A model generated the notes under the pieces. It had not been told where the DNA came from, made no database searches, and was given only the letters and a program-made list of their open reading frames with translations. The translations under genes and the position numbers were made by a program. Positions 1-22,990 of a stretch of 64,000 nucleotides of DNA are shown piece by piece. Every line of letters starts with the position of its first letter. The stretch's first letter is position 1. Source of the stretch: Synechococcus sp. (GTDB lineage Bacteria > Cyanobacteriota > Cyanobacteriia > PCC-6307 > Cyanobiaceae); contig JBJBCN010000002.1 in assembly GCA_047285805.1 (NCBI GenBank), positions 187,798-251,797 of the forward strand, read 5' to 3'.

Positions 1-209
1 GGGTCGTCGGGGGGGAAGTACTTGCCGATGTCCCCAAGGGACAAAGCCCCGAGCAGGGCATCCATGATCGCGTGCACAAGCACGTCGGCATCGCTGTGGC
101 CATCGAGCCCCAGGCCGGCGGGGTGCTCCAACCGTTTGCCCCCCAGGATCAGCGGCCGACCCGGCACCAGCCGGTGAATGTCGTATCCGTTGCCGATCCG
201 AAGCTGCAT
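1..209 (-). CDS. ispF: 2-C-methyl-D-erythritol 2,4-cyclodiphosphate synthase (5' part, runs off window)
   Basis: Manual translation from ATG at 209: [14 protein letters not shown]...[26 protein letters not shown], the canonical IspF motifs. Confidence 0.95.
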
Positions 210-237
210 GGGTGCCGGTTGCACTTGGTTTTGGAAC

Positions 238-663
238 CTAGGCGCTCGGCAGCACCTGCAGGTTGGTGCCGTCCCGGCCAGTCACCAGGACCTGGCTGCC
301 GGGTTGAAGGGCTTGGCCGGGCTCCAGATTCTCCGCTGCCCAGCTTTGGCCGTGCCAGAGCACCCGCCCCTGGTCGCTCCCTGTCTCAAAGCCACTGATC
401 ACCTCGGCGTACTGGGCCGCGTCGCTTTGGCGGATGGCCCGCTCTCGTTTGCGCGCGGACCAGCGCTGCAGCAGCACAAGCAGGGCGAGCGAGCCGGCGG
501 GAAAGAGCAGCAGCTGCAGCCCCAGGTTCAGGGGCAACCAGGCGCACAGCAACGAGACCAGTAGGGCGGAGAGGGCCGCGGCGAGCAGACCGTCGAATTC
601 CGCTCCGAGCCACTCCAGGGCCAAGAGGGCCAAGGCAACCAGAAACCAGAGCAGCGCAGTCAC
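238..663 (-). CDS. NfeD family membrane protein
   Basis: Hydrophobic N-terminus plus C-terminal OB fold ([13 protein letters not shown]...V.V.G.DG..L.V); likely start GTG at 663; adjacent to an SPFH gene. Confidence 0.8.
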
Positions 664-719
664 GGGGTTGCGATCAGGCAGCTGCTGCCTAGCTTGAAGC
701 CGACTGAGCGATTGGGCCA

Positions 720-1631
720 ATGGAAGCGCTGTTTGGCTTGCCGGCCCTCCTGGTGATGGCCTTTCTGGGGCTAAACAGCATCAAGGTCACCAGCGGCGGC
801 CAGTCCCGACTGGTGGAACGGCTCGGCAAGTACGACCGGCAACTACAGCCCGGCCTCTCCCTGGTGCTCCCGATGGTGGAGCGTGTGGTCAGCCATGAGT
901 CCCTGAAGGAGCGGGTGCTCGACATTCCGCCCCAGCAGTGCATCACCCGCGACAACGTCGCCATTGAGGTGGATGCGGTCGTCTACTGGCAGCTGCTGGA
1001 GCACGAGCGGGCCTATTACTCCGTCGACAACCTGCAGGCGGCGATGGTGAATCTGGTGCTGACCCAGATCCGCGCCGAGATGGGCAAGCTCGACCTCGAT
1101 CAAACCTTCACGACCCGCCAGGAGGTTAATGAGGCGCTGTTGCGGGAGTTGGATTCCGCCACCGATCCCTGGGGCGTGAAGGTGACCCGGGTGGAACTGC
1201 GCGACATTCAACCCTCCCGCGGGGTGCAGCAGGCGATGGAGCAGCAGATGACCGCGGAACGGGAGAAGCGCGCCGCGATCCTGCGCTCAGAGGGCGAAAA
1301 GGAGTCCCAGCTCAACGCGGCCCGGGGCCGCGCCGAAGCCCTCGTGCTCGATGCGAAGGCCAAGCAGGAAGCCTTGGTGTTGGAGGCGGAAGCCCAGGCC
1401 AAGCAGCAGGCCCTCTTGGCCCAGGCCCGCGCCGATGCGGCCAGCCGTTTGGCCGTGGCGATTCAGGAGAATCCCGAGGCGGCTGAGGCGATGCGCTTGC
1501 TGCTGGCAGGCGATTGGATGGCGATGGGCGAGCAGATGGCCCAGGCTCCTGGAGGCAGCGTCTTGATGGTGGACCCCCAAAGCCCGGCGGCCTTGATCTC
1601 GGCGCTCAAGGGGTTCCAGCTGCAGGATTAG
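720..1631 (+). CDS. SPFH/band 7 (stomatin-like) protein
   Basis: VERLGKY, DIPPQQCITRDNV.I.VDAVVY, DPWGVKVTRVELRDI, AERE.RA motifs. Confidence 0.92.
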   Translation: MEALFGLPALLVMAFLGLNSIKVTSGGQSRLVERLGKYDRQLQPGLSLVLPMVERVVSHESLKERVLDIPPQQCITRDNVAIEVDAVVYWQLLEHERAYYSVDNLQAAMVNLVLTQIRAEMGKLDLDQTFTTRQEVNEALLRELDSATDPWGVKVTRVELRDIQPSRGVQQAMEQQMTAEREKRAAILRSEGEKESQLNAARGRAEALVLDAKAKQEALVLEAEAQAKQQALLAQARADAASRLAVAIQENPEAAEAMRLLLAGDWMAMGEQMAQAPGGSVLMVDPQSPAALISALKGFQLQD

Positions 1632-2323
1632 CTCTGCTGCTTATCTTGCCAGCGGGCGTAAAGGTCCGGCCGGCGCTCGCGGGTGCGCTCCTCTTGCTGT
1701 TCAGCACGCCAGCGGGCAATGGCGCCGTGGTCGCCGCTGCGCAGAACAGCCGGGACGCTCATGCCACGAAAGTCCGCCGGGCGGGTGTAGTGGGGATGCT
1801 CCAGCAGCAGCGCGCTGTGGCTCTCCTCCTCCAGGCAGGCCTCGGTGCCGACGGTGCCGGGCAGCAGGCGAACCACCCCATTGATGATCGTCATCGCCGG
1901 CAGTTCGCCTCCGGTCAGCACGAAGTCGCCGATTGAGACCTCCTCGTCGGCCAAGGAGCGAATGCGCTCATCGAATCCTTCGTAGTGACCGCAGAGGAAG
2001 ACCAGCTGGTTGTAGTCCGCCGCCCAGCGGCTCAGGTTTACCTGACGCAAGGGTTGCCCCTGGGGGGACATCAACAGGGTGCGCCGGCGCGGTTGCACCG
2101 GGATCGACTCGAAGGCCGCAAAGACCGGCTCCGGCTTGAGCACCATGCCGGCACCGCCGCCATAGGGCTCATCGTCCACCTTGCGGTAGCGATCTGTGGC
2201 GAAGTCCCGCGGGTTGTGAACGTGAAGTTCAGCGCGTCCGGCGGCGAAGGCGCGGCCGATTACCCCCAGACCCTGCAGTGGCGCAAAGGCCTCCGGGGTC
2301 AGGCTGACCACATCGAGACGCAT
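1628..2323 (-). CDS. trmD: tRNA (guanine-N1)-methyltransferase
   Basis: VDDEPYGGGAGMVLKPEP, CGHYEGFDER, SIGDFVLTGGE, YTRP motifs. Confidence 0.97.
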   Translation of the reverse strand: MRLDVVSLTPEAFAPLQGLGVIGRAFAAGRAELHVHNPRDFATDRYRKVDDEPYGGGAGMVLKPEPVFAAFESIPVQPRRRTLLMSPQGQPLRQVNLSRWAADYNQLVFLCGHYEGFDERIRSLADEEVSIGDFVLTGGELPAMTIINGVVRLLPGTVGTEACLEEESHSALLLEHPHYTRPADFRGMSVPAVLRSGDHGAIARWRAEQQEERTRERRPDLYARWQDKQQS

Positions 2324-2326
2324 CGC

Positions 2327-2794
2327 TTAGGCGGCGGGCCGGCTGACCCGGCGGATTTCAGAGCTGAAGCTGGCGCGGCCCGGGGTGCCATCGGCGGGCT
2401 GCTCGATGGTGGAGCGCAGGCGCAGGTTTGGTTTGTTGAACCAGATCCGCTCACGGATTTCGCTGTCGTCCTGCTTGACGATCAGCTCGAGGCTGCTGTC
2501 GGGCCAGAGGGTCCAGCGGCCCTGCTGCTCTCCGGCTTGGAACTGGCCATCGGCCTGGAACTGCAGTTGTCTCGGGGCCTGGTCCTTGGGGCCGACGCTC
2601 AGGCCGCCGGGGTTGCCTTCGAGGTGGCGCACCACCAGTTCCCCGCGTTCGCTGCTATGCCATTCATCGCCCTCACCTCCCTCGCTTTCGTCGCCAAGGA
2701 CAAAGCGGGATCGAAGGCACATCCATTCGCCTTCGCAGAGCTGCAGGAAGGCTTCGATCGAGTCCGGGGGAAAGGAGGCGGTGTCGCTCATCAA
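2327..2794 (-). CDS. CpcS/CpeS-family phycobiliprotein lyase
   Basis: F.....GEW..LRS N-terminus and ERIWF.KPNLRLRS....SF.SEIRR C-terminus typical of S/U-type lyases. Confidence 0.8.
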   Translation of the reverse strand: MMSDTASFPPDSIEAFLQLCEGEWMCLRSRFVLGDESEGGEGDEWHSSERGELVVRHLEGNPGGLSVGPKDQAPRQLQFQADGQFQAGEQQGRWTLWPDSSLELIVKQDDSEIRERIWFNKPNLRLRSTIEQPADGTPGRASFSSEIRRVSRPAA

Positions 2795-2803
2795 TGGATT
2801 CTC

Positions 2804-3787
2804 TCAGCTGTCGCCGCGGTACCCGAGTTCCGCGAGCCGCGATGAGCTGCGGCGCCAGTTGGGAACGACCTTGACGAAGAGCTCCAGGTATACCGGGCCG
2901 GAGATCAGCTTCTGCATCTGTTGGCGAGCGCCCGTGCCGATCTGGCGAAGCATCCGTCCGCCTTTGCCGATCAGGATTCCTTTCTGACTGGTGCGCTCCA
3001 CGAGCACGGTGGCAAGGACCGCGGTGCGCTCCTTGTCATCGACGATCCGCTCGATTTGCACGGCGACTGAGTGGGGGATCTCTTCGCGGGTGTGCTGGAG
3101 GACCTGCTCGCGAATCAGCTCCGCCAGCAGCAGCTGCTCCGGTTGGTCGCTGACCGCATCGGGGGGGTAGAGGTGCGGCCCCTCCGGCAGCTCAGCCGCC
3201 AGGGCATTGACGAGCGCATCGGTGCCATCGCCATTGAGGGCGCTGACGGGGTGGAGGGGCCAACTAGGTACGAGTTCGCGGTAGCTGGTCTCCAGCTCGG
3301 CGGCCTGGTCGGGATCCACGAGATCGCATTTGTTTAGGGCGACCTGGACTGGCACTTTGGTGCGCTCGAGCAGCTCGACGATGAAGCCATCCCCGCGGCC
3401 GGCGGCCTGGCTGCCATCCACAAGCAGCAGCACCTGATCGACTTCACCGATCGCGCCACGGGCGGTCTGTACGAGCCGCTCCCCCAGCAGGTGATGGGGC
3501 TTGTGGATCCCGGGGGTGTCCACGAGCACCAGCTGGGCCGTGGGCGTGGTGAGGATCGCCCGCAGCCGGTTGCGGGTGGTTTGGGCCACCGGGGAGGTGA
3601 TTGCCACCTTCTCGCCGACCAATTGATTCATCAGGGTGGACTTGCCCACGTTGGGCCGTCCCACTAGGGCGACAAAGCCTGAACGAAAGCCTTCGGGGCT
3701 CTGCCCCAGGGTGAAGCCACCGGCTACGGCCTTGGCCGGCAGATCGCTGAGATCTGGGAAAGGCAGCAACTGGTCGTGTGACTCCAT
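2804..3787 (-). CDS. era: GTPase Era
   Basis: GRPNVGKS, QTTR, DTPG, NKCD, KH domain (REEIPHSVAV, GILIGKGG); start uncertain (ATG 3787 or TTG 3808). Confidence 0.97.
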   Translation of the reverse strand: MESHDQLLPFPDLSDLPAKAVAGGFTLGQSPEGFRSGFVALVGRPNVGKSTLMNQLVGEKVAITSPVAQTTRNRLRAILTTPTAQLVLVDTPGIHKPHHLLGERLVQTARGAIGEVDQVLLLVDGSQAAGRGDGFIVELLERTKVPVQVALNKCDLVDPDQAAELETSYRELVPSWPLHPVSALNGDGTDALVNALAAELPEGPHLYPPDAVSDQPEQLLLAELIREQVLQHTREEIPHSVAVQIERIVDDKERTAVLATVLVERTSQKGILIGKGGRMLRQIGTGARQQMQKLISGPVYLELFVKVVPNWRRSSSRLAELGYRGDS

Positions 3788-3905
3788 AGTCTCAACAAAT
3801 GTGTTCAAGCGTTGCTATTACTGAGATCACAGGCGTGCACTGACCTCTGGACAGACACTAAGCACAGACATTTGACCTCTTTCACGCATCGTTCCACTCA
3901 ACTCC

Positions 3906-5054
3906 ATGGCCCGGCCTGTCTCTGGTCCAAGACGCATCGACAACAGCGGTACGTGGTTCGCCGTGAAGATCATTGGCGGCCGCAAATTCATGAAGTCCCT
4001 CGGGACGAAGAACAAGGTTGAGGCACTGAGGCGCTGGCCCGCTGCTCTCGAAGATCTCGAGCGTCGAGCAAACCCTGAGAAGCCAAGACCTACTGATGTC
4101 CTGGACGTCAGCCACCTCGATCCGACCACTGGGAAGCAGTGGGAGGAGCGGGAACGTGCCATCGACTTGCTCCCTGCCTCAGCCATCGACTGGTCCGAGA
4201 ATGAGGAAGACGACGGAAAGATCTCATGGACCGAGGCGGCAACCATCGCGGAGCAGCGTTGGAAGCGAAAGAACGGAGGGGAGGGCTACAGCCGCACGTG
4301 GTGGGAGGCGACACGTCGTGCCATCACCTTCTGCCCAGTGGGACCGGAGGAGCTTCAGCCTCGGCATATCCGCCAGATGATCATCGAGATGGAGGCCGCC
4401 GGCATGAGGCCTCAGTCCGCCTCTCAACGATGCAGCTGCCTCTCTAGTCTGCTAACTGCACTCATCAAGTCCGGTGCTGCTGACCACCTGACCAACCCAT
4501 TCAGCAAGGTCGATTACTCGGTCAAGAGCAGGATCCATTACAGAACCCCATCAACTCAGGAGTACAAGGCGGTGTGGCAAAGGAGGCACGAGATGCCCGA
4601 AGGCTGCGCTGAGGTGCTCGAGATCCTGATCTTCAGTGGTGCTCGCATCGAAGAGGTGCTGCAAGCGAGGTACAGCGATGGGTGGATGACCATGGAGAAG
4701 ACCCCTGATTGGTCACCGAAGAACGCAACCTCCTATCGACGACTGCCATTGCCTGAGGGCATGGCCCTCTCTCGTTTCAGCACGCCAAGCGCTCAGGTGT
4801 TCAGGAAGAAGATGAAGCGGATTGCCCCAGCAGTGGAGGAAGCGGCGTCCATGCCGCTTACTCCGCATTGCTTCAGGCACGGATGGAGAACAGCAGCCCG
4901 GATGGGTGGAGCTGACGATTACCTCAGCGAACGACTGCTGGGTCACCGGGCAGGGTTAGCCATGTCGATGACGTACGGCGAGTACCCGGATGAGCTGCTG
5001 CAGCGAGAGGCCGAGAAGGTCTGGGCTGTGCTGCGTCAGTGGCTCGACAGCTGA
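3906..5054 (+). CDS. Tyrosine recombinase/integrase
   Basis: Full catalytic set: SGARIEE (R), PKN (K), HCFRH (HxxR), LGH (H), MTYG (Y); N-terminal KSLGTKN..EA arm-binding-like motif. Confidence 0.92.
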   Translation: MARPVSGPRRIDNSGTWFAVKIIGGRKFMKSLGTKNKVEALRRWPAALEDLERRANPEKPRPTDVLDVSHLDPTTGKQWEERERAIDLLPASAIDWSENEEDDGKISWTEAATIAEQRWKRKNGGEGYSRTWWEATRRAITFCPVGPEELQPRHIRQMIIEMEAAGMRPQSASQRCSCLSSLLTALIKSGAADHLTNPFSKVDYSVKSRIHYRTPSTQEYKAVWQRRHEMPEGCAEVLEILIFSGARIEEVLQARYSDGWMTMEKTPDWSPKNATSYRRLPLPEGMALSRFSTPSAQVFRKKMKRIAPAVEEAASMPLTPHCFRHGWRTAARMGGADDYLSERLLGHRAGLAMSMTYGEYPDELLQREAEKVWAVLRQWLDS

Positions 5055-5230
5055 ATCGAGCAACAGTCGATTTGGCTGTCGGGGGTAAATCTCCTCAACA
5101 GTTGATTTAGTTGCCCCATCAATCCTTTGTTGTGAAAGGTCAACACGCCTCGAGTAAATCGTCAGGACACACAAGTTGACAAACTCAGAATCTGAAGCAA
5201 ATCAGCAGGAGCTTTTTGCTCTCGCTGAGA

Positions 5231-6445
5231 TTAAGTATTTGCTCCTGCCGATTTCAACTTCTTAAGCACCTGCATGCAGGTCCATTTCAGTGGTACCCAC
5301 TGCGCCTTTGTCGCGAGTTGCTCCAGCAGCCCTGCTTGATCATCCAGGCCCATTGCAAGGCAGCCCCAGGCAGCGGCAATCCTGGATTTGGTGTACTGAG
5401 GAATAGTTTCAGCCAGTGCCAGCCGCACCAGTTCGCTTCTAGTTTCAATCCTTTGAAGGCTGACCACGGCAGTGAGGTAGTAGTGCGTGACGTAATCACT
5501 CCATAACTTGTCTTTGATTCGGTCAATCAGGACGAGTTTCTCCTCTTCTTCCATCGACATCAGGCTTGCAGCGCCACCGTATTGACGTGCTTCATCCCTG
5601 TGTTGAAGATTGTTTTCGATTTCATCGGCGTTAACGTCACAGACCCATTCCGTTCTCAGCTTTAAATTTTGTGGATTGTCCTGCAGTAATTGAGTGATCA
5701 ATCCTTCGTACTCTTGAGGGACAACACAGGTTTTCCCTGGATCAACCAGTTGAAAGGCACTTCTCGCTCGTAGGGACATTGAGACCGGAGCCGTCGCTAG
5801 TGACTCGAGTCGACTGACGTCCCCTGCATCGCCAAGATCAATGACTGCAGAACGGCGTCGACCCGCGATTGGGTCCACCAGTTGGGGAACCAAGGTATCT
5901 AAGGCTGTTGTCCTGCCATGAACCTTTGAGCCATAGGCTCTGGCTGCTCCCGACACCAGTGGATTTGGGTCTTCGTCAAAGGGCTTGATGGCATGGTCTG
6001 CGCCTTCAATTCCAAGCCGGGTATGAGCTTGGATCACGGCGCGTTTTTGGATGTCCTCTCCTCCCAGGGCCTGAAGTAGCTGATTTTGCTGCTCGGTATC
6101 CAGCTCGGAGCTGATTTTTGTGATCGAGTCCACTGCGTTGATCACAGCTGATTCATCGCTGCAGCTCAATGCTGCAAACAGAACAGGCAGTGCTTTGGGG
6201 TTGCGCCGCCGTCCCAAGGCGTCTAGGGCTTTTCTTATCGTAATCCGATCAAACAGGTTGTCAGGACTGAGTTGCGCGGCTTCGATCAGTGTGTTCAGGG
6301 ACTCTTCGCTGTCACTGGCACCTAGCCTCGTTGCTGCCATGTACTTATCAACTGGTCGCTCCAGCGAGTCCGGGGCAGCCAGAATGATGCTGATCGCACG
6401 TTCCTCAGTAAGGCCTTCTACAAGATTGTCAAAACGTTCAGGCAT
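5231..6445 (-). CDS. mpeZ: Phycoerythrin-II bilin lyase-isomerase, MpeZ-like (E/F clan, MpeQWYZ family)
   Basis: [81 protein letters not shown] match my recollection of MpeZ; Y318-V319-T320 by my count. Confidence 0.82.
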
Positions 6446-6529
6446 TGATGAGCCTTTTGATTAATAGTTCCAATTAGCGATTGACTCGCCAGAGGTCAAA
6501 ATCTTGGGTCGACGCGGGCTGAGATTTGC

Positions 6530-6599
6530 GCCAAGAGCCGTTGGCTGACCTTATAGCCAGATATTATCATGCCATTGCTGTGCCAAGAGGTCTTGGCTG
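6530..6599. promoter_or_regulatory. Two GCCAA-N6-TTGGC palindromes upstream of the mpeZ-like gene
   Basis: gccaagagccgttggctg (6530-6547) and gccaagaggtcttggctg (6582-6599), 52 bp apart, flanking AT-rich -10-like sequence on the minus strand. Confidence 0.4.
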
Positions 6600-7247
6600 C
6601 CGCAGTCAGTAGTCTTCATCCTTGTTTCTGTATGTCTCTGATTGTTTTTTTATTAATCATTTGAGCTTTAGATGTTATGAGGGGGTATTAGTCCAGGTAT
6701 GTCCCCCTGCTTTGCCAAGAAGAGGGGGTGGGGTACTTCGTTTTTCTTGGGGAGGGGGCACCCCTCATGGTTCGACCTGCTCCGAAACGCAAGTCGGGGT
6801 TGCAATGTGGCGAAATCCTGGCCAATCCAGTGGTATCACTCGGTTCCGACTACTAACCGAATCTGGTTGACGTCCAAGAGTTTTTTATGCATACGGTCAG
6901 TGACCGAGGATGAGAACCATTCGCCTCGCTCGCGTTCTTAATGCCTGCGCGGCTGCGCGCGTCTTTCTTTGGTTGTCTGTTGCGCACAAATTTATACCTA
7001 GGTAGAACACTGAATATATTGCAGGAGGCCTCTGTAAGGGTCCGCAAGGGGCCTCTCGGCTTCCCTGGCGTTGGCCTGCCGTCCAACGACTACAAGCCCT
7101 TCCAGGCGTTTTTGGGCAGACCTAGTCACAGGTGCCATCTCTTGTCACTGCAGACACTAAGCGCATAAGCCCTTGCTGAGAACCCGCATCAGCACTGAAG
7201 TTCTGTGACTAGACTTGCAAGCTAACCTTGGCAGTCCAACCTCCCCC

Positions 7248-7775
7248 ATGACTGAAGCCGCCCCGCTGGAGCCCACGTTTCAACAGGCGATGGAGATCAC
7301 GGCCCAGTGGCTGGCGCTCTGGGAAAACGGCGAACTCAGCGATGAGGTGATCGGCGATCGGGTTTCCGAGTTGGTGGCCAGTCGTGATGGAGCCCGGGGG
7401 TTCTTTGTGGTGTCCTTGGCTGGGGATTGTCCGTTGATGGATCGCCTGCCGGATCCGGTCGTCTTTGCCCTGCGCCAGGCCGGCGACGGGGTGGTGGACC
7501 TCAGTGCTCGCAACCTGGCCATGAGCACGGCGATGGCGCTGCACCACGAGCGCAACGCCGATGCAGTTCAGCAGGCGGGATCGGAGCGGGTTCAATCCCG
7601 CTGCACCGAACTCCTGCGGCTCATGGAGCAGGAAGCAGTGAAAGGGCGACTGGAAACCCTGCTGGAGGCCACCGAGGGCCGGGGTGAGGACGTGGCCTTC
7701 CTGAAACGCTGGGGCTACGACGCCGGTCAGACCGCTGCAATTGCTGAGGCGGTGTTGGCCGTGGCCCAAGGCTGA
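7248..7775 (+). CDS. Conserved cyanobacterial hypothetical protein
   Basis: Host-like codon usage; V..RDGARGFFV and L.V.NLAMSTAM motifs. Confidence 0.75.
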   Translation: MTEAAPLEPTFQQAMEITAQWLALWENGELSDEVIGDRVSELVASRDGARGFFVVSLAGDCPLMDRLPDPVVFALRQAGDGVVDLSARNLAMSTAMALHHERNADAVQQAGSERVQSRCTELLRLMEQEAVKGRLETLLEATEGRGEDVAFLKRWGYDAGQTAAIAEAVLAVAQG

Positions 7776-7796
7776 GTTGTTTCGAGATTGGCCAAC

Positions 7797-7822
7797 AAAA
7801 AAGCGCCCTCGAGGGGCGCTTT
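7797..7822. terminator. Probable bidirectional intrinsic terminator
   Basis: Stem aaagcgccc/gggcgcttt, loop tcgag, A-tract on the left; lies between convergent genes. Confidence 0.7.
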
Positions 7823-7846
7823 GCTGTCTGAAGGGGTTGATCTGGA

Positions 7847-8581
7847 TCAGTCACGCCGACCGCCACCGTTGAGGGCGATCACCAGGCGCAGGATGAAGAT
7901 GAACAGGTTGATGTAGGTCAGGTACATGCTCAGCGCGCCGGCCAGGTACTGGTCGTCGCTGTAGGTGCGGGGCATCGTGTAAAAGTCCACGAAGGCTGCG
8001 CCCACGAAGATCACGGTGCCGAAGCCGGCGATCAGCAGCTCCATGCCGCCCATGCCGAAGCCGGGCACGAAGATGCCGCCGACGATCTGGACGACCATGG
8101 CGATCACCAGGCCGAGTATGCCCAGGCCGACCACGCCGCTGAGGGCTTGACCGACGCTGTCGCTCATGCGACGGCCCATGACGGAGGCAGCCACGAAGGT
8201 GACGCCAGTAGCCAGGGCGGCGGTGCCGATGGCGCCGATGCCCGCGGTGCCGATGGCCAGGGCCACGATGCCGCTCAGGGTAAAGCCGGTGATCAGGCTG
8301 TAGGCCGCCATGAGCGGCAGGGCGGTGCTGTTGTTCCCCTTCAGGGCCACGTTCTGGGCCACGAAGAAGAGGATGAAGTTTCCGATCAGGGCCACCCAGA
8401 ACAGAGGCATGAACCCGGTGGGGTTGCTGGCCAACAGGGCAAGGCCGCCCATGACGCCACCGGCGGTGAGCACCATGCCGCCGCCCACGTAGGGCAGCGC
8501 TTTATTGACCACGTTGGGCCCCACGAGGGCGCTGGATTGCGCCTCGCGGATGGCCTCCTGGAAATTGCTGCTGGCCGGCAT
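7847..8581 (-). CDS. Bax inhibitor-1/YccA family membrane protein
   Basis: About 7 hydrophobic segments; C-terminal ALSMYLTYINLFIFILRL. Confidence 0.85.
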   Translation of the reverse strand: MPASSNFQEAIREAQSSALVGPNVVNKALPYVGGGMVLTAGGVMGGLALLASNPTGFMPLFWVALIGNFILFFVAQNVALKGNNSTALPLMAAYSLITGFTLSGIVALAIGTAGIGAIGTAALATGVTFVAASVMGRRMSDSVGQALSGVVGLGILGLVIAMVVQIVGGIFVPGFGMGGMELLIAGFGTVIFVGAAFVDFYTMPRTYSDDQYLAGALSMYLTYINLFIFILRLVIALNGGGRRD

Positions 8582-8656
8582 GGCACAGAGAATGACTGGC
8601 TTCATCCTGCCAGCGATCTCCGGGTTGTGTGCCCTTTGGGGGTGTGGATCCCCCGA

Positions 8657-9640
8657 CTAACGTCGGGTCTTGGCAGCATCCCGGGCGGCGTAGGCGGTGA
8701 CCAGGCGCTGCACTAGGGGATGGCGCACCACGTCAGCGGCACTGAGCCGGCAGACCGCGATGCCCTCGACCCCCTCCAGCACCTGTGCGGCCTCGATTAA
8801 GCCGCTCAGTTGACCCTGGGGCAGATCGATCTGGGTTGGGTCCCCGGTGACGACCATCTTTGAGCCCTCACCCAGGCGGGTCAGCACCATTCGCATTTGC
8901 GCCGGGGTGGTGTTCTGGGCCTCATCAAGGATCACGAAGGCCTCGGCCAGGGTGCGTCCTCGCATGTAGGCCAGCGGGGCCACCTCGATCACGTTCTTCT
9001 CGATCAGGGCCGCCGTGCGCTCCTGTCCGAGCAGAGTGTGCAGTGCGTCGTAGAGGGGGCGCAGGAAGGGGTCGACCTTCTGCTGAAGATCACCGGGCAG
9101 AAAGCCAAGGCGCTCTCCGGCTTCCACGGCGGGGCGGGTCAGGATCAGCCGCTCGACCTTGCGCTCCTGCAGCGCGCGCACGGCTTGAACGGCCGCCAGG
9201 AATGTCTTGCCGGTGCCAGCGGGACCTAAGGCAAAGGTGAGGTCGTGGCGCTCGATCGCCTCGACGTAGGTCTTTTGCTTGAGGGTGCGAGGGCGCAGCA
9301 GCTTGCCGTTTTGGCTGCGGGCCAGAACCTGCTTGCTCAGTTGTTGGTGCTCCTCCCCGCGGCCTGTATCCAGGGCGGAGAGGGCGGTTTGCAAATCCAC
9401 CTGGGTGACGCTCTGCCCCTCTTGCCAGAGGGGACGCAGCAGTTCAACCAGGCCGGCGGCCCGCTCCAGCTGGGTGGGGCGGCCTCGCAGTTGCAGCGAA
9501 AGACCCCGCAAGACCAGCGAAGCACCAGTCAGGGCTTCGAGGCGATGCAGGGTCGATTCAGCTTCACCGGCCAAGGCCATTGCGGCGTCCTGGTCGGGAA
9601 GATCGATGGTGAAGGCCGTGAGGCTTTCAGCCCCGGGCAT
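8657..9640 (-). CDS. phoH: PhoH family ATPase
   Basis: GPAGTGKT, LTRPAVEAGERLGFLPGDL, LAYMRGRTL, ILDEAQN, VVRHPLV. Confidence 0.93.
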   Translation of the reverse strand: MPGAESLTAFTIDLPDQDAAMALAGEAESTLHRLEALTGASLVLRGLSLQLRGRPTQLERAAGLVELLRPLWQEGQSVTQVDLQTALSALDTGRGEEHQQLSKQVLARSQNGKLLRPRTLKQKTYVEAIERHDLTFALGPAGTGKTFLAAVQAVRALQERKVERLILTRPAVEAGERLGFLPGDLQQKVDPFLRPLYDALHTLLGQERTAALIEKNVIEVAPLAYMRGRTLAEAFVILDEAQNTTPAQMRMVLTRLGEGSKMVVTGDPTQIDLPQGQLSGLIEAAQVLEGVEGIAVCRLSAADVVRHPLVQRLVTAYAARDAAKTRR

Positions 9641-9651
9641 GGGGGAAGGCC

Positions 9652-10044
9652 TCAGGCTTCGGTGGCTTCTTCAGCGGGAGCCTCTTCGGCGGCAGCGGCG
9701 GCTTCAGCAGCCTTGGCTTCTGCAGCTTCCTTGGCGGCCTGCTTGGCAGCAGCCTCGCGGATGGCGGCTTGCTTCTTCTGGCCGACGACCACGGAGGGAC
9801 GCACTTTCTTCTCGATCAGACCGCCGCGCTCAAGAAGGGTTTGCACAACCTCGGTGGGCTGGGCGCCCTGGGCGAGACGGGCACGGATGGCCTCGGTGTC
9901 AAGACGGGTCTCCTTGGTGCGGGGGTTGTAGAAGCCCAGCTCCTCGAGGGGACGACCGTCGCGGCGTGAGGTGCTGTTGCAGGCCACCAGGCGGAAGCTC
10001 GCTTCCCGCTTCTTACCGAACCGCTTCAGGCGGAGCTTGATCAT
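9652..10044 (-). CDS. rpsP: 30S ribosomal protein S16
   Basis: [12 protein letters not shown]...[15 protein letters not shown]; Ala/Glu/Lys-rich tail; the true start is ATG 10044, inside the longer track ORF. Confidence 0.97.
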
Positions 10045-10135
10045 TGTGGCCTTGCCTTGCTGACTGGATAAACGCGCGGTGACTCCCCAGGGAATCGCGC
10101 GCAAACGACAACAATACTCTCTGGGGTGACGCCCC

Positions 10136-11611
10136 TCAGAGCTCGCCGAAGCCTTTGCGCTTCTTGGCGGGTTTGGCGGCTTTGGGCATGCCGCCGCCAC
10201 GGCCACCACGGCCGGCGGGAGCGCCGCCCGTGCCAGGCATTCCCCCCATCCCAGGCATCCCACCCATCCCGGGGAATCCGCCCATGCCCGGCATTCCGGG
10301 CATGCCTCCACCGCGTGTCATTTGCTGCATGAACCCCCGCATCTGCTGGAAGTTCTGCAGAACCTTGTCAACATCGGCTGGGGTGTGGCCACTGCCGCTG
10401 GCGATGCGCCGCCGCCGGGAGGGATTGGCGGCGAGCAGGTCCGGGTCGCTGCGCTCCGCCTCGGTCATGGAGCCAATCATTGCTTCGATCTTCTTGAGCT
10501 GCTCTTCGCCCTGCTTGAGCATGCCGTCGTCGATCTTGTTCATCCCCGGGATCATTTTCATGAGACCGCCCAGGGAGCCCATGCGCTTGATCAGGCGCAT
10601 CTGCTTAACGAAGTCCGAGAAGTCGAAGGTGGCTTCTTGGAGCTTCTGCTGCATCTTGGCTACATCGGCCAGCTCGACCTCCTTCTGGGCCTTCTCCACC
10701 AGGGTCAGGACGTCGCCCATGCCGAGGATCCGGCTGGCCATCCGTTCGGGGTGGAAGGGCTGCAGCGCCTCCACTTTTTCCCCCGTACCGATGAATTTGA
10801 TCGGTGCCCCGCTGACCTTGCGGATAGAGAGCGCCGCACCGCCGCGGGAGTCACCGTCTAGCTTGGTGAGGACCGCACCGGTGATGCCCACCTGATCGTG
10901 GAAGGTGCGGGTGAGTTCAGCGGCCTCCTGACCGATCATTGAGTCAACCACCAGCAGCACTTCATCGGGCTGGACGGCTTCTCGGATCCGGACCATCTCG
11001 TCCATCATCGAGGTGTCGATCTGGAGGCGACCGGCGGTGTCCACCAGCACGGTGTCGAAGCCCTCAGCCTTGGCCTTTTCAATGCCCGCGGCGGCGATGG
11101 CTTCCGGCTTGGCTTCGGTGCCCAGGCTGAAGACCTCAACGTCGATCTGGCTGCCGAGGGTTTTCAGCTGGTCGATGGCCGCCGGGCGGTAGACGTCAGC
11201 GCCCACCAGCAGGGCCTTGCGTCCTTTCTCCTTGAGGTGAAGGCCGAGCTTGGCGGTGGCGGTGGTCTTACCAGCGCCCTGCAGGCCCGCCATCAAGACG
11301 ACGGCTGGGGCCCCTTCTTTGCCGGCAGCAGCCAGAGGAGCGTTTTCGCCGCCCATGGTCTCCACGAGCTGCTCGTGGACCACCTGGATGAATTTCTGGT
11401 CAGGGCTGATGCCCCGCACCACCTCTTCACCTAGTGCCTTCTTGCGGACCTCTTCCACGAAGTCCTTGACCACCGGAAGGCTGACATCGGCCTCGAGCAG
11501 GGCCCGGCGCACGTCCTTAAGTGCCCCCTCGATATTGCCTTCGCTGATGGCCCCCTGACCACGCAGGTTCTTGACGGCATCTTCAAACCGTTGGGAGAGC
11601 TCGTCGAACAT
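10136..11611 (-). CDS. ffh: Signal recognition particle protein
   Basis: [42 protein letters not shown] domain. Confidence 0.98.
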
Positions 11612-11671
11612 GGGGACGCCTGTGATGAACCGATCGTAAAAAGCGACCGTCTCTTGGGGGCGTCCGAGGGC

Positions 11672-13645
11672 TCAGTTCTTGGCGGTGGGCGTGTAGGCGA
11701 CCAGCTGCCAGCTGCCGTTTTGGCGGCCAAAGATATAGGTGTTGCGCAGCGTTATCTCTGGGGTGCGGCTAAGGATCTTGCCGCCACTGGTCTTGAGTTC
11801 GTCGCTATAGGTCATCGCTACCTGGGCGGCGATGCGCACCGGTGAGCGAGCGCTGATCTTGAAGCCGGTGATGCTGGTGGTCACCGTTTCCGTGGCGTCG
11901 CGCTGGCGGTTGGCCTGGCTCTGGCGCTGCAGCCGCTGGATCTGATTGGGACGGGCCAGATCCGACAGGCTCTCGCTCGGTGCACCGCCGGCGAGGACCG
12001 CGGCTTTTTCCTTGAGCCAGACCTCGAGCAGGTCCTGCAATTGCGTGGCGCTGGGGTCGGGATTGGTCAGGGGGAAGGGGGCCGCCTGGACAGGAGCAGC
12101 CGGAGCGGCAGCTTTTGGTTGGACGAGGGCCGCGACCTTTTCGCTGCTGGCGGCTTCAGGATCGCCACCGCGGGGCTTGAGAGCCATTAAGCCTCCAAGA
12201 CCAATCACGCCGATGGCGACGGCTGCACCAACGGGCATGCCCCAGCTGGGGAGCTCTTGGATTTGCTCCTGCAGGTTGCCCAGCAGCTCGGCCAGTCGCC
12301 CGCGGGAGCCATCCCACACCTCGTCGTCGTCCTCTTGGTCCTCACTGATCTCGAGGCTGGTTGGCGGCTCATTGCTGCCCGGCAGGTCGAAGTTCGGCCA
12401 GTCGCCAAAGCCCGTGCTGGTGTCCGTCGCCGCCGGCACCTCGAAACTGGGTTTGGCATTGAACTGGCGGCCGCGGATGCGGTCCTGTTGGTCGATGTAG
12501 GCCTGGACATCCCGGTCGGCGAACCAGGCATCGAGGTTCGCGTCGACATCGATGTCGCGGAAGCCCTCCAGCACCTCGCGGGTCAACCAGTCGCGGCAGT
12601 AGGCGCAGAGGCGAGCCAAGGGGTCATCTCCCTGCTCCATCGCCCATTGCTTCAGGGCGGCGTCGGCGCCCTCATCAAAGAAGCGCTCTGCTTCATCGAC
12701 CTGACCGAGCAGAAGTTGCTGACAGGAGAGGAAGACCTCGATCCCGGGCTGTCCGCTGATCTTGAGGCGTTCGTAGGCCTCGAGGATCCGTTCGGGTTTG
12801 CGCTGGGAGAAGCCCGAGGCCGTCAGGGCAAAGCTCGCGAGGAAGTCGGCGGTGGCGGAACCTCTATCGCCCCATCGGCTGAAGAGCTCGACTTGCTCTT
12901 GGGCCGTCAGGAACTGGCGGATCTGCTTGAAGAACGACTGGAACTCGCTTTGGGGGAAGGTCAGATCGGTGTGGCCCTCGAGGCCACCGCGCTGCTGCAC
13001 CAGTTGCTCCAGCAGGGCGATGCCCTGTTGTCGGGAGCTGCTGGCGGAGAGGTCGCGGCTGATCAGATCGAGCACGCGATAGGGAAGCAGTTCCTTGAGG
13101 TCCTGCTCGAGCTTGCGCCGTTGCTCGGCCTGTTGGCCCATGCGTTGCAGCAGCTGCAGGCCCTGTTGCAGGGTCAGGGCGGCCGCTTCATAGCGGCGTT
13201 GGTCGCGGTAATCCCGGGCGGTGCTCTGGCAGGCCAGTCCGGCGAGCAGGGTCAGGTCGGCTTCGCGGCTGCTGCCCAGGGCGGGGGCTTGGGGCGGCTG
13301 CAGTCCGCGGGAGGCGCTATCGAAGGCTTCCTGGGATTGGCCGGCCTCCATTAAGAGCAGAAGACCACCGACTTCCCGGGACGGGGGGATCTCCAGGGCG
13401 GCGATGGAGCCGTTGGCGTTGTCTGCGATAGCCGTCAGTTCCCGCTCGTAGGCCTGGCGGCGAGTCTCATCGCTCAGCAGGTCGGCGCTGGCTTCGAGCA
13501 GTTCGCCTCGGGCCTGGAGGGTGTCTTGGGTAAAGCCTTGGTCTGGAACGCGATCAAGCCGATGCTGCAAAGTCCGCAGCACGCTCTGCCGGTCGGAGCT
13601 GGCATTCACGCCGAGCAGGCGGAAGTGGTCGATCGGCAGTTCCAA
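11672..13645 (-). CDS. ftn2: Cell division protein Ftn2/ARC6
   Basis: MELPIDHFRLLGV J-like N-terminus, LPYRVLDL, TM segment, C-terminal IMS-like domain. Confidence 0.88.
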   Translation of the reverse strand: MELPIDHFRLLGVNASSDRQSVLRTLQHRLDRVPDQGFTQDTLQARGELLEASADLLSDETRRQAYERELTAIADNANGSIAALEIPPSREVGGLLLLMEAGQSQEAFDSASRGLQPPQAPALGSSREADLTLLAGLACQSTARDYRDQRRYEAAALTLQQGLQLLQRMGQQAEQRRKLEQDLKELLPYRVLDLISRDLSASSSRQQGIALLEQLVQQRGGLEGHTDLTFPQSEFQSFFKQIRQFLTAQEQVELFSRWGDRGSATADFLASFALTASGFSQRKPERILEAYERLKISGQPGIEVFLSCQQLLLGQVDEAERFFDEGADAALKQWAMEQGDDPLARLCAYCRDWLTREVLEGFRDIDVDANLDAWFADRDVQAYIDQQDRIRGRQFNAKPSFEVPAATDTSTGFGDWPNFDLPGSNEPPTSLEISEDQEDDDEVWDGSRGRLAELLGNLQEQIQELPSWGMPVGAAVAIGVIGLGGLMALKPRGGDPEAASSEKVAALVQPKAAAPAAPVQAAPFPLTNPDPSATQLQDLLEVWLKEKAAVLAGGAPSESLSDLARPNQIQRLQRQSQANRQRDATETVTTSITGFKISARSPVRIAAQVAMTYSDELKTSGGKILSRTPEITLRNTYIFGRQNGSWQLVAYTPTAKN

Positions 13646-13786
13646 ATTGAGCTCGGATTGGCGGGAGCTAATCGGACGTGACTGTAGGCAGAGTCTTCGG
13701 TTTTGGCCGTCCTTCGTGCACCTTTTGGAGATGGACCCCGTACAGTCAGGCCAGCACCAGAGTCCCCGGAGAGCAGGACCTCAGCA

Positions 13787-14896
13787 ATGACACAGGCCGA
13801 TCTTGGACAGGGCGTGGCCACCAGTGGTGCTCCCTCCTGCTCCGCCGATGTCAATCAGGTCGGCTTGCACGCTGAGCGGCTGATGAGCCTCTATCCCTCT
13901 ACTCCGGCAACGGTGACGCGGGATGAGGGCCTAATGCTTTACCGCGACATGACCCTTGGCCGGCGCTTTGAAGATAAGTGCGCCGAGATGTACTACCGCG
14001 GAAAGATGTTCGGCTTTGTTCATCTCTACAACGGCCAAGAGGCCGTGAGTACGGGGGTGATCAAGGCGATGAAGATGCAGCACGACTGGTTCTGCAGCAC
14101 CTACCGCGATCACGTTCACGCCCTGAGCTGCGGCGTGACGGCCCGGGAGGTTATGAGCGAGCTGTTCGGTAAGGAGACCGGCTGCAGCAAGGGCCGTGGC
14201 GGCTCCATGCACCTCTTCTCCAAGGAGCACCACCTTTTGGGTGGTTATGCCTTCATCGGTGAGGGCATTCCCGTGGCCCTGGGTGCGGCCTTCACCAGCC
14301 GCTACAAGCGCGATGCCCTCGGCGACTCCAGCAGCGACGCCGTGACCGCGGCCTTCTTCGGCGACGGCACCTGCAACATTGGTCAATTCTACGAGTGCCT
14401 GAACATGGCGGCGCTCTGGAAGCTGCCGATCATTTTCGTGGTCGAGAACAACAAGTGGGCCATCGGCATGGACCACAACCGCGCCACCAGTGACCCGGAG
14501 ATCTGGCGTAAGGCGGCCGCCTTCGGGATGGCCGGCGAAGAAGTCGACGGCATGGATGTTTTGGCGGTACGGGGTGCAGCCCAGCGCGCGATCGAGCGGG
14601 CCCGCTCTGGTGAAGGTCCCACGGTGCTCGAGTGCCTGACCTACCGCTTCCGCGGCCACTCCCTGGCGGACCCCGACGAACTACGGGCGGAGGCCGAGAA
14701 GGAGTTCTGGGCCCAGCGTGATCCGATCAAGCGCCTGGCGGCTCACCTGATCGAGCACAACCTGGCGACGGTTGAGGAACTGAAGGCGATCGAGAAGGAG
14801 ATTGACGCCGAGGTGGCCGATTGCGTCGAGTTCGCCCTGGCGGCTCCCGAGCCCAAGCCGGAAGAGCTCACCCGCTACATCTGGGCTGAGGACTGA
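13787..14896 (+). CDS. pdhA: Pyruvate dehydrogenase E1 alpha subunit
   Basis: [23 protein letters not shown]...NN TPP motif, [13 protein letters not shown]. Confidence 0.96.
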
Positions 14897-14906
14897 TCTC
14901 CCGTTG

Positions 14907-15821
14907 TTAAAGCCCGTGTAAACGGGCTTGCTCGTTGGCGGCCCGGAAGACCAGGCCGTGGCGCCGCACGAGGGGTTTGAGTTCGTCGTAGCCACCGCCA
15001 ATCACCGTGGCGATTGGAATGTTGCGCCGCAGGCAGCTGTCCAGCACCAACCGGTCCCGGTTGAGCAGGCCGTGGTTGCTGAGTTGGAGTCGGCCGAGCC
15101 GGTCCTCACGGTGGGGGTCAACGCCGGCGTTGTAGAGCACTAAATCAGGTTGCTCTTGATCGAGCAGGGTTGGAATCAGATCGCCAATCGCCTCCAGATA
15201 GGCGTCGTCTCCGAGGCCATCGTCTAAGGCCAGGTCGACATCGCTTTGTTTTTTGCGCAGCGGAAAGTTACTGCCGCAGTGCACCGAGAGGGTGAAGACC
15301 CTGGGCTCGTCGGCAAAGATCACGGCGGTGGCATCCCCCTGGTGCACATCCAGGTCGATCACCATCAGTCGCTGCACCTGCCCTTCGGCCAGCAGGACCT
15401 GGGCGGTAACCGCGCAGTCGTTGAAGATGCAGAAGCCGCTGCCGTGGTCGGGGTAGGCGTGGTGGGTGCCTCCGGCCAGGTGGCAGGATACACCGTGCTC
15501 CAGGGCCAGCCTGGCCGTCAGCAGGGATCCGCCCACCGCCAGCCAGGTGCGTTGCACCAAGGGGGTCGTGGCCGGTAGGCCTATGCGGCGCTGCTCAGCT
15601 GGCAGCAGCTCACCGCGGGCGAAGGCCTGGTGGTACCGGCGGTTATGGGTGAGCTCAAGCCAGCGCCTGGGTACTGGCAGCGGGCGATGGATTTGCTCGT
15701 CCCGCGCAATCCCCTGTTCCTCCAGCAGGGTGCGGAGGAGTTTGAACTTCGCCATCGGGAATCGATGGCTACTGGGCAAGGGGGCCGAGTAGGCCGGGTG
15801 GTATACGAGCGGCAGGCGCAC
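14907..15821 (-). CDS. Histone deacetylase family protein
   Basis: HRFPM.K, GGTHHA, GFCIFND, DLDVHQGD, GGGY. Confidence 0.92.
   Translation of the reverse strand: MRLPLVYHPAYSAPLPSSHRFPMAKFKLLRTLLEEQGIARDEQIHRPLPVPRRWLELTHNRRYHQAFARGELLPAEQRRIGLPATTPLVQRTWLAVGGSLLTARLALEHGVSCHLAGGTHHAYPDHGSGFCIFNDCAVTAQVLLAEGQVQRLMVIDLDVHQGDATAVIFADEPRVFTLSVHCGSNFPLRKKQSDVDLALDDGLGDDAYLEAIGDLIPTLLDQEQPDLVLYNAGVDPHREDRLGRLQLSNHGLLNRDRLVLDSCLRRNIPIATVIGGGYDELKPLVRRHGLVFRAANEQARLHGL
14910..14929. terminator. Hairpin at the pdhA/HDAC convergence
   Basis: aagcccgt-gtaa-acgggctt. Confidence 0.45.
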
Positions 15822-15830
15822 CGGGCGTGA

Positions 15831-16001
15831 TCAGTCCTCGTCGCCGTCGAACTCTTCGTCGAAGAGGGTGTCCCGCAGCAGACGGTCGACGAGCAGCCCC
15901 ATGTCATCGAGCTGGAGTTGCTGCATCAGCAGCTCGAGTTCTTTGATCACCGGCTCCGAGAGCCGCAGGGTGATCGGAAGGGTGTCTTCTCCGCCGAGCA
16001 T
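15831..16001 (-). CDS. 56-aa acidic small protein, ribbon-helix-helix-like
   Basis: Manual translation MLGGEDTLPITLRLSEPVIKELELLMQQLQLDDMGLLVDRLLRDTLFDEEFDGDED; GC-rich third positions; below the ORF-track cutoff. Confidence 0.6.
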   Translation of the reverse strand: MLGGEDTLPITLRLSEPVIKELELLMQQLQLDDMGLLVDRLLRDTLFDEEFDGDED

Positions 16002-16072
16002 TGCGGGTGAGCGCTAAGTCAACCAAGTCTGGCGGAAACGGGGCTACAAAGGAGTGCAATCAAGGGATCGCG

Positions 16073-16297
16073 ATGGCTCCGGTTTGGCTGGTGATTTTGT
16101 TTTGGTCCGGGTCCGTCCATGGCGGCACCGCCATGCAAACGCTGCCGATGAAGACCTTCGCCGACTGCCAGAAGTCCCGCGACATGCTGATGGCCCAGCT
16201 CAAGACGAGCCGGGTAAGCAAGAGCAAGGCCCTCAATAGTTTCTGCATTTCTGGATCCGAGCTGCCAGTGGCGGCAGCCTCGGTTCCCGAGTCCTAG
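16073..16297 (+). CDS. Small hypothetical protein with hydrophobic N-terminus and two Cys
   Basis: MAPVWLVILFWSG...ADCQK...FCISG; host-like codons. Confidence 0.55.
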   Translation: MAPVWLVILFWSGSVHGGTAMQTLPMKTFADCQKSRDMLMAQLKTSRVSKSKALNSFCISGSELPVAAASVPES

Positions 16298-17226
16298 ATC
16301 GCGGTCGGCACTCGCCGGGTGAGGTGGCGCAGCTTGCGCAGGGCCTTGAGCTCCACCTGGCGCACTCGCTCGCGGGAGACCTCGAGCATGCGGCCGATTT
16401 CAGCGAGGGTGTGGCGATCCTCGCCTTCGAGGCCAAAGCGCAGTTCCAGTACCTGACGCTCTTGGTCGGTCAGGTGCGTGAGCCAGCGGCCGAGCTGCTC
16501 CTGATGGATGCCGCGCTCCACCTGATCGAGGGGTTCGCTGTTGGTCTGATCGGCAATCAGCTCTCCCAGGAAACTGCGGCCCTCTTCGCCATTGACCGGG
16601 GCATCCAGGCTGGAGGTGGTGAGGGCCTGGCGCAGTAGCGAGTCGAGCTCGTCGAGGGGCATGTCCATCTCTTCCGCAATCTCCTTGCGGCTGGGCATGG
16701 CGCCGAGTTTGTGGGCAAGCTCGAGGCTGACCTTGCGGATCGCGGTCAGTCGTTCGGAGAGATGGACCGGCAGGCGGATGGTGCGGGACTGACAGGCGAT
16801 GGCCCGCGTCATGCTCTGGCGGATCCACCAGAAGGCATAGGTCGAGAACTTGTAGCCGCGGGTCGGATCAAATTTCTCGACCGCGCGCTCGAGGCCTAGG
16901 GAACCCTCCTGGATTAGATCGAGGAGCTCTAGGCCTTTGCCTTGGTATTTCTTGGCGACGCTGACGACGAGTCGCAGGTTGGCCTTCATCATCCGCTCTT
17001 TGGAGCGGCGGCCGACCCGCATGATCTTTTTCTCGTGAGTTGTATAACTGTCGCCTTTGTCTTCTTCGGCAAGCCGCATCATGGTCTGCACTTGATTACC
17101 CAGTTCAATCTCTTCGGCGGGAGTCAACAGAGGAACCCGGCCAATTGTCGAGAGGTACCAACTAATTGGATCGCTACTGCGGCGACGACTAGCGCTGTTG
17201 GCGTTGGAGCTGGCGGCGGGTGCCAT
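16294..17226 (-). CDS. Group 2 RNA polymerase sigma-70 factor
   Basis: ANLRLVVSVAKKY, DLIQEG..GL.RAVEKFD..RGYKFSTYA.WWIRQ, region 4 TL.EIG....VSRERVRQ. Confidence 0.95.
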   Translation of the reverse strand: MAPAASSNANSASRRRSSDPISWYLSTIGRVPLLTPAEEIELGNQVQTMMRLAEEDKGDSYTTHEKKIMRVGRRSKERMMKANLRLVVSVAKKYQGKGLELLDLIQEGSLGLERAVEKFDPTRGYKFSTYAFWWIRQSMTRAIACQSRTIRLPVHLSERLTAIRKVSLELAHKLGAMPSRKEIAEEMDMPLDELDSLLRQALTTSSLDAPVNGEEGRSFLGELIADQTNSEPLDQVERGIHQEQLGRWLTHLTDQERQVLELRFGLEGEDRHTLAEIGRMLEVSRERVRQVELKALRKLRHLTRRVPTAI

Positions 17227-17356
17227 GGGCTCCTCCTGAAAGGTGGGAAAAATCTCTTACGGGTTTTTTTGAAACCCTTGGGATTTCAGTAACGCTTCAG
17301 CTTTGAGATACGAAAGATCACATCACTTTTGAGACTCGTTTCCACCACTGGGCTGT

Positions 17357-18949: not shown

Positions 18950-18995
18950 AACGGCACTGGCGGCTGCAGTTCCATGATGGAGAGAACAGCCACTG

Positions 18996-22367: not shown

Positions 22368-22928
22368 GTGCTGCTGTTGGCCTCTGCCTCCCCCGCCCGC
22401 CGGCGATTGCTGGAGCAGGCCGCGATTCCGCACCGCGTGCAGGTCAGCGGGGTCGATGAGGAGGTCATCCACAACCTCGACCCGGCGCAGTTGGTGCAGC
22501 TCTTGGCCCAGGCCAAGGCGGGCGCGGTGCTTCAGGGCGGGATCTCTGCTGAGATTTCAGCGGTTCTGGGCTGCGATTCGGTACTGGCCTTTGAGGGGGA
22601 GGTCTTTGGTAAACCGGATGGTCCGCAGGAAGCTATCGCCCGCTGGCAGCGGATGCGAGGGGCCTGGGGTGAGCTCCACACCGGCCACGCCTTGCTTAAT
22701 CCAGCCGGGGGAGAGCGGCTGACAACGGTGACCACGCGCGTCCTCTTTGCTGAGCTGAGCGACGCCGAAATCGAGGCCTATGTGGCCACCGGTGAACCGC
22801 TGCAGTGCGCCGGTGGTTTTGCCCTTGAGGGCCGCGGCGGCAGCCTGGTGGAGCGCCTCGATGGGTGTTTCTCCAACGTCATTGGTCTGAGCCTGCCCCT
22901 GCTGAGGCAGTGGTTGTGGGCGGCCTGA
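22368..22928 (+). CDS. maf: Maf family nucleoside triphosphate pyrophosphatase
   Basis: [38 protein letters not shown]. Confidence 0.92.
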
Positions 22929-22990
22929 AGCCTTGCCGAAACCCACTGTTGCCATTTTTCTTTCGCCGTAACTATCGCGAAGACAAGGCC

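Follow-up and report, generated by a model that had tools for sequence, protein, structure and literature searches.

The stretch of DNA analysed here, referred to as the window, comprises 64,000 nucleotides of the genome of a marine Synechococcus sp. (contig C2:187798-251797), and the gene in question is an open reading frame (ORF) at 5231..6445 on its minus strand. By every sequence test that was applied, this gene is an intact lyase-isomerase of the MpeQ type; it is an mpeQ orthologue and by homology encodes the phycoerythrobilin (PEB) lyase-isomerase for Cys83 of the phycoerythrin-II alpha subunit, MpeA. It lies on a small integrase island, in a genome that has lost its resident mpeY and that carries the partner and regulator genes of type-IV chromatic acclimation of the B kind (CA4-B) on a second island. 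We consider it likely that a horizontally imported MpeQ substitutes for the decayed mpeY and shares Cys83, in trans, with an MpeW controlled by FciA and FciB. The enzyme family and the rule that relates residue 319 to isomerase activity had been described before; what appears to be new is the genomic arrangement, and our literature search found no paper on the combination of a 3a rod region, CA4-B and an ectopic mpeQ.

The ORF runs through 404 codons with no internal stop and no frameshift, as the original prediction had held when it called the gene full length and uninterrupted. Residues 1-397 of the product align gaplessly with residues 19-415 of the 'Bilin Lyase-Isomerase' of PDB entries 7MC4/7MCH (MpeQ with an 18-residue tag; 289/397 identical, 73%; E = 3.5e-189 for 7MC4, far beyond chance). 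Since this alignment has no gaps, position 319 of the query is position 319 of the published MpeQ numbering. Residues 315-323 read WSDYVTHYY (W315-S316-D317-Y318-V319-T320-H321-Y322-Y323), and the count of D317-Y318-V319-T320 given in the original prediction was therefore correct by both the translation and the alignment. The catalytic Tyr318 is encoded by TAC at 5492-5494 and the isomerase-determining Val319 by GTC at 5489-5491, both on the minus strand. A Pfam search returned HEAT_2 and HEAT repeats, and the NCBIfam model for CpeY-type E/F lyases matched residues 1-400 under its equivalog cut-off, as expected for a paralogue. The protein is an all-helical HEAT-repeat lyase of the E/F type with full-length homology to a characterised MpeQ.

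In PMC9705338, which cites Kumarapperuma 2022, Tyr318 is described as activating PEB in MpeQ, the side chain of Val319 as clashing with ring A, a clash that is relieved by isomerisation of PEB to phycourobilin (PUB), and MpeW as a plain PEB lyase that carries Gly319. That account and the clade sets assembled here both match what the original prediction had stated, namely that Val319 marks lyase-isomerases and Gly319 plain lyases: column 319 is Val in all examined MpeQ and MpeZ sequences and Gly in all examined MpeY and MpeW sequences, and CpeY also has Gly. Six alignment columns (9, 30, 224, 319, 323 and 348) split all isomerases (MpeQ and MpeZ) from all lyases (MpeY and MpeW), and the query is in the isomerase state at 6/6, V319 and Y323 included. 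Of the 120 homologues from the database, those with 65% identity or more to the query read WSDYV[TI]HYY; two at 56-57% identity read GSDYVIHYY, and the rest of the group at 55-61% identity reads WSDYG[AV]NYL. A literature search on V319G mutagenesis yielded nothing usable.

For the phylogeny, 48 named genomic loci were fetched and each lyase was named by its gene neighbours. A lyase upstream of mpeBA was labelled MpeY or MpeQ, the order unk10 (minus), fciA, fciB, lyase (plus) defined MpeZ, and the order fciA, fciB, lyase (minus), unk10 defined MpeW. A maximum-likelihood tree was computed with IQ-TREE under LG+C20 (support as UFBoot / SH-aLRT), and a quicker version was also made. The query fell inside an MpeQ clade of 17 sequences that includes 7MC4 (98/91), so that the check proposed with the original prediction grouped it with MpeQ and not with MpeW or MpeY. 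Its sister is the MpeQ of Synechococcus sp. MIT S9452 (100/100; 94% amino acid identity), and MpeZ (100/100) and MpeW (97/93) form clades apart from the MpeQ clade. It is extremely improbable that the gene is mpeZ, the lyase-isomerase of the CA4-A island, on a minimal cassette. MpeZ does share the WSDYVTHYY motif and is usually island-borne, but its sequences are 52-54% identical to the query compared with 66-94% for MpeQ sequences and form their own clade, the nucleotide homology, flanking intergenic DNA included, points to the mpeQ locus, and the regulators in this genome are arranged as in CA4-B and not as in CA4-A. On the phylogeny, mpeZ was ruled out as the identity of the gene. One further rod-region lyase, upstream of mpeBA in the Prochlorococcaceae metagenome-assembled genome Fu_MAG_50 (L018:1118-2308), reads GSDYVIHYY (Val319, Tyr323) and falls outside the MpeQ and MpeZ clades, with two similar sequences in the protein database; it may represent an independent or early isomerase lineage.

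The gene is part of an insertion of ~3.3-3.4 kb. The inserted segment (3777..7218) contains an integrase gene, mpeQ and ~0.7 kb of non-coding DNA, and it is flanked by era (2804-3787/3808, minus strand) and trmD on the left and by a UCP020893-family gene (7215/7248-7775, plus strand), BI-1 and phoH on the right. In the congeners G003, G008, G017, G016 and G014 the site is empty and the flanks are 28-300 bp apart, which identifies ~3777-7218 of the window as inserted DNA. The GC content of 3852-7165 is 0.54 versus 0.65-0.66 in the flanks, and GC at third codon positions (GC3) is 0.53 for mpeQ versus 0.7-0.9 for host genes. In another congener (G007; locus L058, G007:C4:205800-209600), an unrelated, repetitive and probably surface-located protein of 914 aa occupies the same site between era and the UCP020893-family gene, which is therefore a variable hotspot. 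An assembly chimera was rejected as an explanation, given that syntenic host genes flank the insertion on either side within a contig of 1.39 Mb and that NCBI assembly GCA_047285245.1 and a Logan assembly contain the same protein in the same context (99.97-99.99% nucleotide identity, 1-3 mismatches over 8.5-11 kb).

The integrase is an intact tyrosine recombinase of 382 aa (3906..5054, plus strand). Its Pfam Phage_integrase match is weak (E 4.8e-4, under the cut-off), and R247, K272, H321-x-x-R324, H347 and Y357/Y360, a full catalytic set, are invariant among this protein and its four known homologues. The family is rare: a set of 5.8 billion proteins held only these four homologues at 39-41% identity, on contigs of 2-3 kb whose small unknown genes were uninformative. 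No close relative of the integrase was present in the genus and none among 50,697 phage records, and no relative of MpeQ was found on IMG/VR viral contigs. A phage as the vehicle for mpeQ was rejected on these grounds. A 15-bp direct repeat, CAGACACTAAGC[A/G]CA, lies near both ends of the island. Its left copy, CAGACACTAAGCACA (3852..3866, plus strand), is a candidate att site ~75 bp inside the left homology break, and its right copy, CAGACACTAAGCGCA (7151..7165, plus strand), is 14/15 identical and lies ~55 bp inside the right break. The core of the repeat is missing at the empty sites of six other species, which is uninformative because the intergenic DNA there is unconserved. The remaining non-coding DNA of the island (6712..7150) holds only short ORFs without Pfam matches and has no similarity to the fetched loci. 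An Rfam search of window positions 1-20000 returned no RNA family, the island contains no tRNA, and there is none within ~20 kb of it, the nearest being a tRNA-Leu. A promoter and terminator scan gave weak consensus matches that were not usefully above those in shuffled sequences, and it was not used.

The origin of the gene can be read from the extent of its nucleotide similarity. The match to the MIT S9452 rod region (91%) spans 5145-6711 only, that is, the gene with 86 bp on its 3' side and 265 bp on its 5' side, and it ends at the start of the divergent neighbour gene of the donor context. Because the homology covers exactly the gene and its intergenic flanks, mpeQ moved together with its own promoter region. 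That region (promoter and 5' untranslated region; 6446..6711, minus strand, 265 bp) is nearly unchanged relative to S9452 over its proximal ~125 bp. The co-transferred downstream segment (5145..5230, minus strand, 86 bp) includes a 14-nt inverted repeat that reaches across the stop region, with arms at 5199-5212 and 5241-5254. The other MpeQ loci examined (16/16) are found directly 5' of mpeBA in rod regions of type 3c/3dB, and the closest environmental copies (P0001, 94%) all lie in rod regions of the canonical form, where a CA4-B island follows downstream; the query is not so placed, mpeQ being on contig C2 and mpeBA on contig C3. The gene would thus have been acquired horizontally, as single-gene cargo, from a Synechococcus of pigment type 3c/3dB, the nearest known relative being MIT S9452-like.

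The host genome (2.37 Mb in three contigs, ~61% GC) contains only four members of the lyase family, namely mpeQ, mpeW, an mpeY pseudogene and cpeY. The pseudogene occupies the usual mpeY/mpeQ place upstream of mpeB (C3:126557-127601) and has several stops in every frame as well as a frameshift. What is left of its motif reads GSDYGVHYL, and the pseudogene clusters with MpeY sequences of the 3a type, for example that of WH7803. With the resident mpeY dead, the lyase in the window is a replacement and not an extra. The rod region on C3 is pigment-type-3a-like and collinear with loci of the 3a type, the WH7803 locus for example; mpeBA is 82-84% identical at the nucleotide level to 3a alleles versus 77-78% to other types, and MpeA shares 93% identity with its WH7803 counterpart. 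The rod region was found to lack unk10 and orthologues of mpeC and mpeU, and mpeU occurs only as a 3' fragment elsewhere. The original prediction had pointed out that a host lacking mpeA would leave the lyase as non-functional cargo; mpeA is present (C3:125186-125674), and its product has Cys75, Cys83 and Cys140, with surroundings of Cys83 that are identical across all pigment types. Before Cys140, this MpeA reads N-R-G-C, with the Arg found in 3c/3dB alleles (S-R-G-C), and 3a and 3dA alleles read N-D-G-C. Any MpeY, MpeQ, MpeW or MpeZ gene was found in 2/45 species genomes of the genus, this host included, which makes phycoerythrin II itself a rarity in this lineage. The small low-GC contig C1 (6.8 kb, 45% GC), which is unplaced, encodes TPR-glycosyltransferase-like proteins, a methyltransferase and pieces of repetitive surface proteins, and is probably an unassembled piece of a cell-surface island.

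The original prediction had assumed that FciA and FciB are missing from this organism, which is not the case. A collinear CA4-B block of 4.6 kb lies on the same contig as mpeQ, ~1.07 Mb away (C2:1256766-1261365). It starts in the 3' part of mpeU and stops right after unk10, and its intergenic regions are kept. The proteins FciA (343 aa), FciB (321 aa), MpeW (397 aa, G319) and Unk10 (114 aa) all have their full length, share 81-96% identity with the canonical proteins of CA4-B, and are encoded in CA4-B order and orientation. The mpeW gene (C2:1259465-1260658, minus strand) is intact, its product is 90% identical to canonical MpeW, and it falls in the MpeW clade. All five genes of the CA4-B set (fciA, fciB, mpeW, unk10 and mpeQ) are thus present and intact and fall in the expected clades. 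The term orphan, by which the lyase had been described, holds within the window and with respect to the rod region but not genome-wide. The block is 79-84% identical at the nucleotide level to CA4-B islands inside 3dB rod regions; in this host it does not lie between mpeU and cpeZ of a 3c-type rod region, the rod region being on C3. Its own island (C2:1255609-1266147, ~10.4 kb, 35-46% GC) is bounded by a tRNA-Ser(CGA), by a 13-bp repeat that copies the end of this tRNA, and by a P4-type integrase, which has an Arm DNA-binding domain as well as a Phage_integrase match (1e-12). The host CA4-B proteins are only 49-57% identical to their S9452 equivalents, whereas the mpeQ region is S9452-like (91% nucleotide identity). 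These different donors imply at least two separate acquisitions.

With mpeY dead, MpeQ and MpeW are the sole candidates for MpeA-Cys83. In the mechanism that we propose from the gene content, mpeQ would be expressed constitutively from its co-transferred promoter, and MpeQ would isomerise PEB to PUB, the pigment that absorbs blue light, and ligate the PUB to Cys83. In green light, FciA and FciB would induce mpeW, and MpeW, as a plain PEB lyase with G319, would outcompete MpeQ and put PEB on Cys83. Grebert 2021 reportedly found that mpeQ of A15-62 is not colour-regulated and that mpeW is green-light-induced. Lacking mpeU and mpeC, the host would show a colour response, if any, at Cys83 only, and a smaller one than true 3d strains. 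It is possible, at somewhat less than even chances in our estimate, that a 3a green-light specialist gained type-IV chromatic acclimation in this way, or at least became a PUB-enriched variant, by piecemeal import of CA4-B on two integrase islands followed by loss of mpeY.

Several observations weigh against the substitution of MpeY by an active MpeQ that shares its site with MpeW. At the level of the lyase sequence, the main caveat on activity is R70I, which could impair the enzyme. The Ile70 codon (ATA, 6236..6238, minus strand) is unique to the query, column 70 being Arg in 119/120 database homologues and Lys in 1/120. A D24A substitution is also present. In addition, the ancestral stop TAA has become TCG, as the comparison with MIT S9452 mpeQ shows, adding the six residues SAGANT (5234..5251, minus strand) to a protein that in nearly all relatives has 397-398 aa. 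The dN/dS between the query and MIT S9452 mpeQ is 0.10, which argues for constraint on mpeQ, but this value spans the whole path between the two sequences and is therefore no proof of constraint since the transfer. With that averaging, it supports the second half of the earlier suggestion that the gene is recent or under selection. A donor-type MpeQ would also have to act on a 3a-type MpeA, which is 85% identical to that of S9452, and mpeU and mpeC are absent or fragmentary in the host. Finally, strain WH8109 has a complete CA4-B set and does not acclimate (bioRxiv 10.64898/2026.10.21.760676), a case that indicates that a full CA4-B gene set is no guarantee of acclimation.

The sequence oddities of the lyase, together with its position outside the rod region, speak for an alternative in which mpeQ is hitch-hiking cargo, crippled by R70I at a near-invariant column and/or by the C-terminal extension that followed the loss of the ancestral stop codon, or silent, with MpeW alone serving Cys83. 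We regard this as improbable. The mpeQ ORF has remained free of frameshifts and internal stops while the resident mpeY is wrecked, the dN/dS is low, and the native promoter region is kept with its proximal part nearly unchanged. CpeY paralogues carry R, Q or K at column 70, so that Q or K is tolerated there, and the identical sequence recurs in independent assemblies. Moreover, Cys83 would depend on MpeQ for a dedicated lyase at all times when mpeW is uninduced.

The fate of the CA4-B block bears on a different alternative, in which MpeQ is active and constitutive, the CA4-B block is non-functional and Cys83 always carries PUB, so that the strain derives from 3a, has a PUB:PEB ratio that is always raised, and is no acclimater. 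The precedent of WH8109, the lack of mpeU and mpeC in the host, and the fact that the block has been cut from its usual rod-region context with mpeU as a 3' fragment only all speak for such a fixed phenotype. On the other hand, fciA, fciB, mpeW and unk10 are full length in one collinear 4.6-kb block with their intergenic regions kept, and an mpeW that is never expressed should decay just like mpeY. We therefore consider a fixed phenotype unlikely, though less so than inactive cargo, and favour the reading in which MpeQ and a regulated MpeW share Cys83.

Comparison with known systems shows where this genome conforms and where it departs. The MpeQ proteins of A15-62 (7MC4/7MCH) and MIT S9452 belong to the same clade as the query, are 73% and 94% identical to it without gaps, and share D317-Y318-V319-T320; the same substrate, MpeA with Cys83, is present in the query genome. 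Unlike those two genes, the query is not upstream of mpeBA but on an integrase island 3' of era, its host has a 3a-type and not a 3c/3dB rod region, and its product has R70I, D24A and the 6-aa extension. The CA4-B system of pigment type 3dB has the same five genes, with the same island order and orientation, as the host. The CA4-B island is stated to lie always at one position within the rod region, and mpeQ to belong to 3c/3dB rod regions (PMC8995045). In this host, unlike in 3dB strains, the block lies on the ~10.4-kb tRNA-Ser(CGA) island, mpeQ is at a third locus and the rod region is of the 3a type. BIOS-E4-1-like '3cA' CRD1 strains (PMC8995045) also have a degenerate mpeY while a lyase-isomerase encoded elsewhere serves Cys83. 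In those strains, however, mpeZ from a CA4-A island takes the place of mpeY, fciA and fciB are missing and the rod region is 3dA-type. In our host mpeQ takes that place, and the genome has fciA, fciB and mpeW together with a rod region of the 3a type. The mpeQ island further resembles tycheposon-like insertions (Hackl 2020/2023; PMC8995045) in being small and cargo-bearing, with a tyrosine recombinase at a variable site. The tycheposon hallmark of tRNA, integrase and repeat is present at the CA4-B island of the host, and the tRNA is missing at the mpeQ island. A further difference from such insertions is the integrase of the mpeQ island, which comes from a rare family and lacks close relatives both in the genus and among phage records.

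Elsewhere in the window, a quick look shows mostly tightly packed, long ORFs with high GC3, which does not fit the earlier statement that many accessory genes there are decayed. The only place where that description applies is a stretch of short ORFs at 22.7-27.5 kb. The region 22700-27750 has lower GC and encodes a truncated HEPN domain, an LprI-like protein, a c-type cytochrome and several products without matches; it lies just upstream of a tRNA-Leu(TAA) at 27748-27832 and may be another small island. An aspartate/ornithine carbamoyltransferase ORF at 60080-61195 has a GC3 of 0.50 versus 0.7-0.9 in its neighbours; here a foreign copy may have replaced a core gene.

The arrangement found in this host contradicts the published fixed position of CA4-B (PMC8995045). 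Both gene sets are physically joined to integrases, and one of them to a tRNA, a link that the tycheposon hypothesis of pigment-gene mobility had lacked for CA4-B. Green-light specialists are said to become acclimaters via a CA4-A island and blue-light specialists via CA4-B. The host does not fit this Grebert 2021 scenario and shows a third route, in which mpeQ and CA4-B, each on a mobile island, are added to a 3a backbone and mpeY is lost. There are also consequences for surveys. Metagenomic pigment typing uses mpeBA alleles together with mpeW as a '3dB-specific' marker (bioRxiv 10.64898/2026.07.10.737521), and cells like this host would score twice, as 3a and as 3dB. The host is at the same time a natural test of the single-site model, with the Cys83 enzyme swap alone in a 3a antenna. 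If the piecemeal conversion is true, this would be the first natural case in which the CA4-B module acts in trans, from loci beyond the rod region and against a 3a background, and it would provide direct physical evidence of integrase islands moving light-colour traits between lineages.

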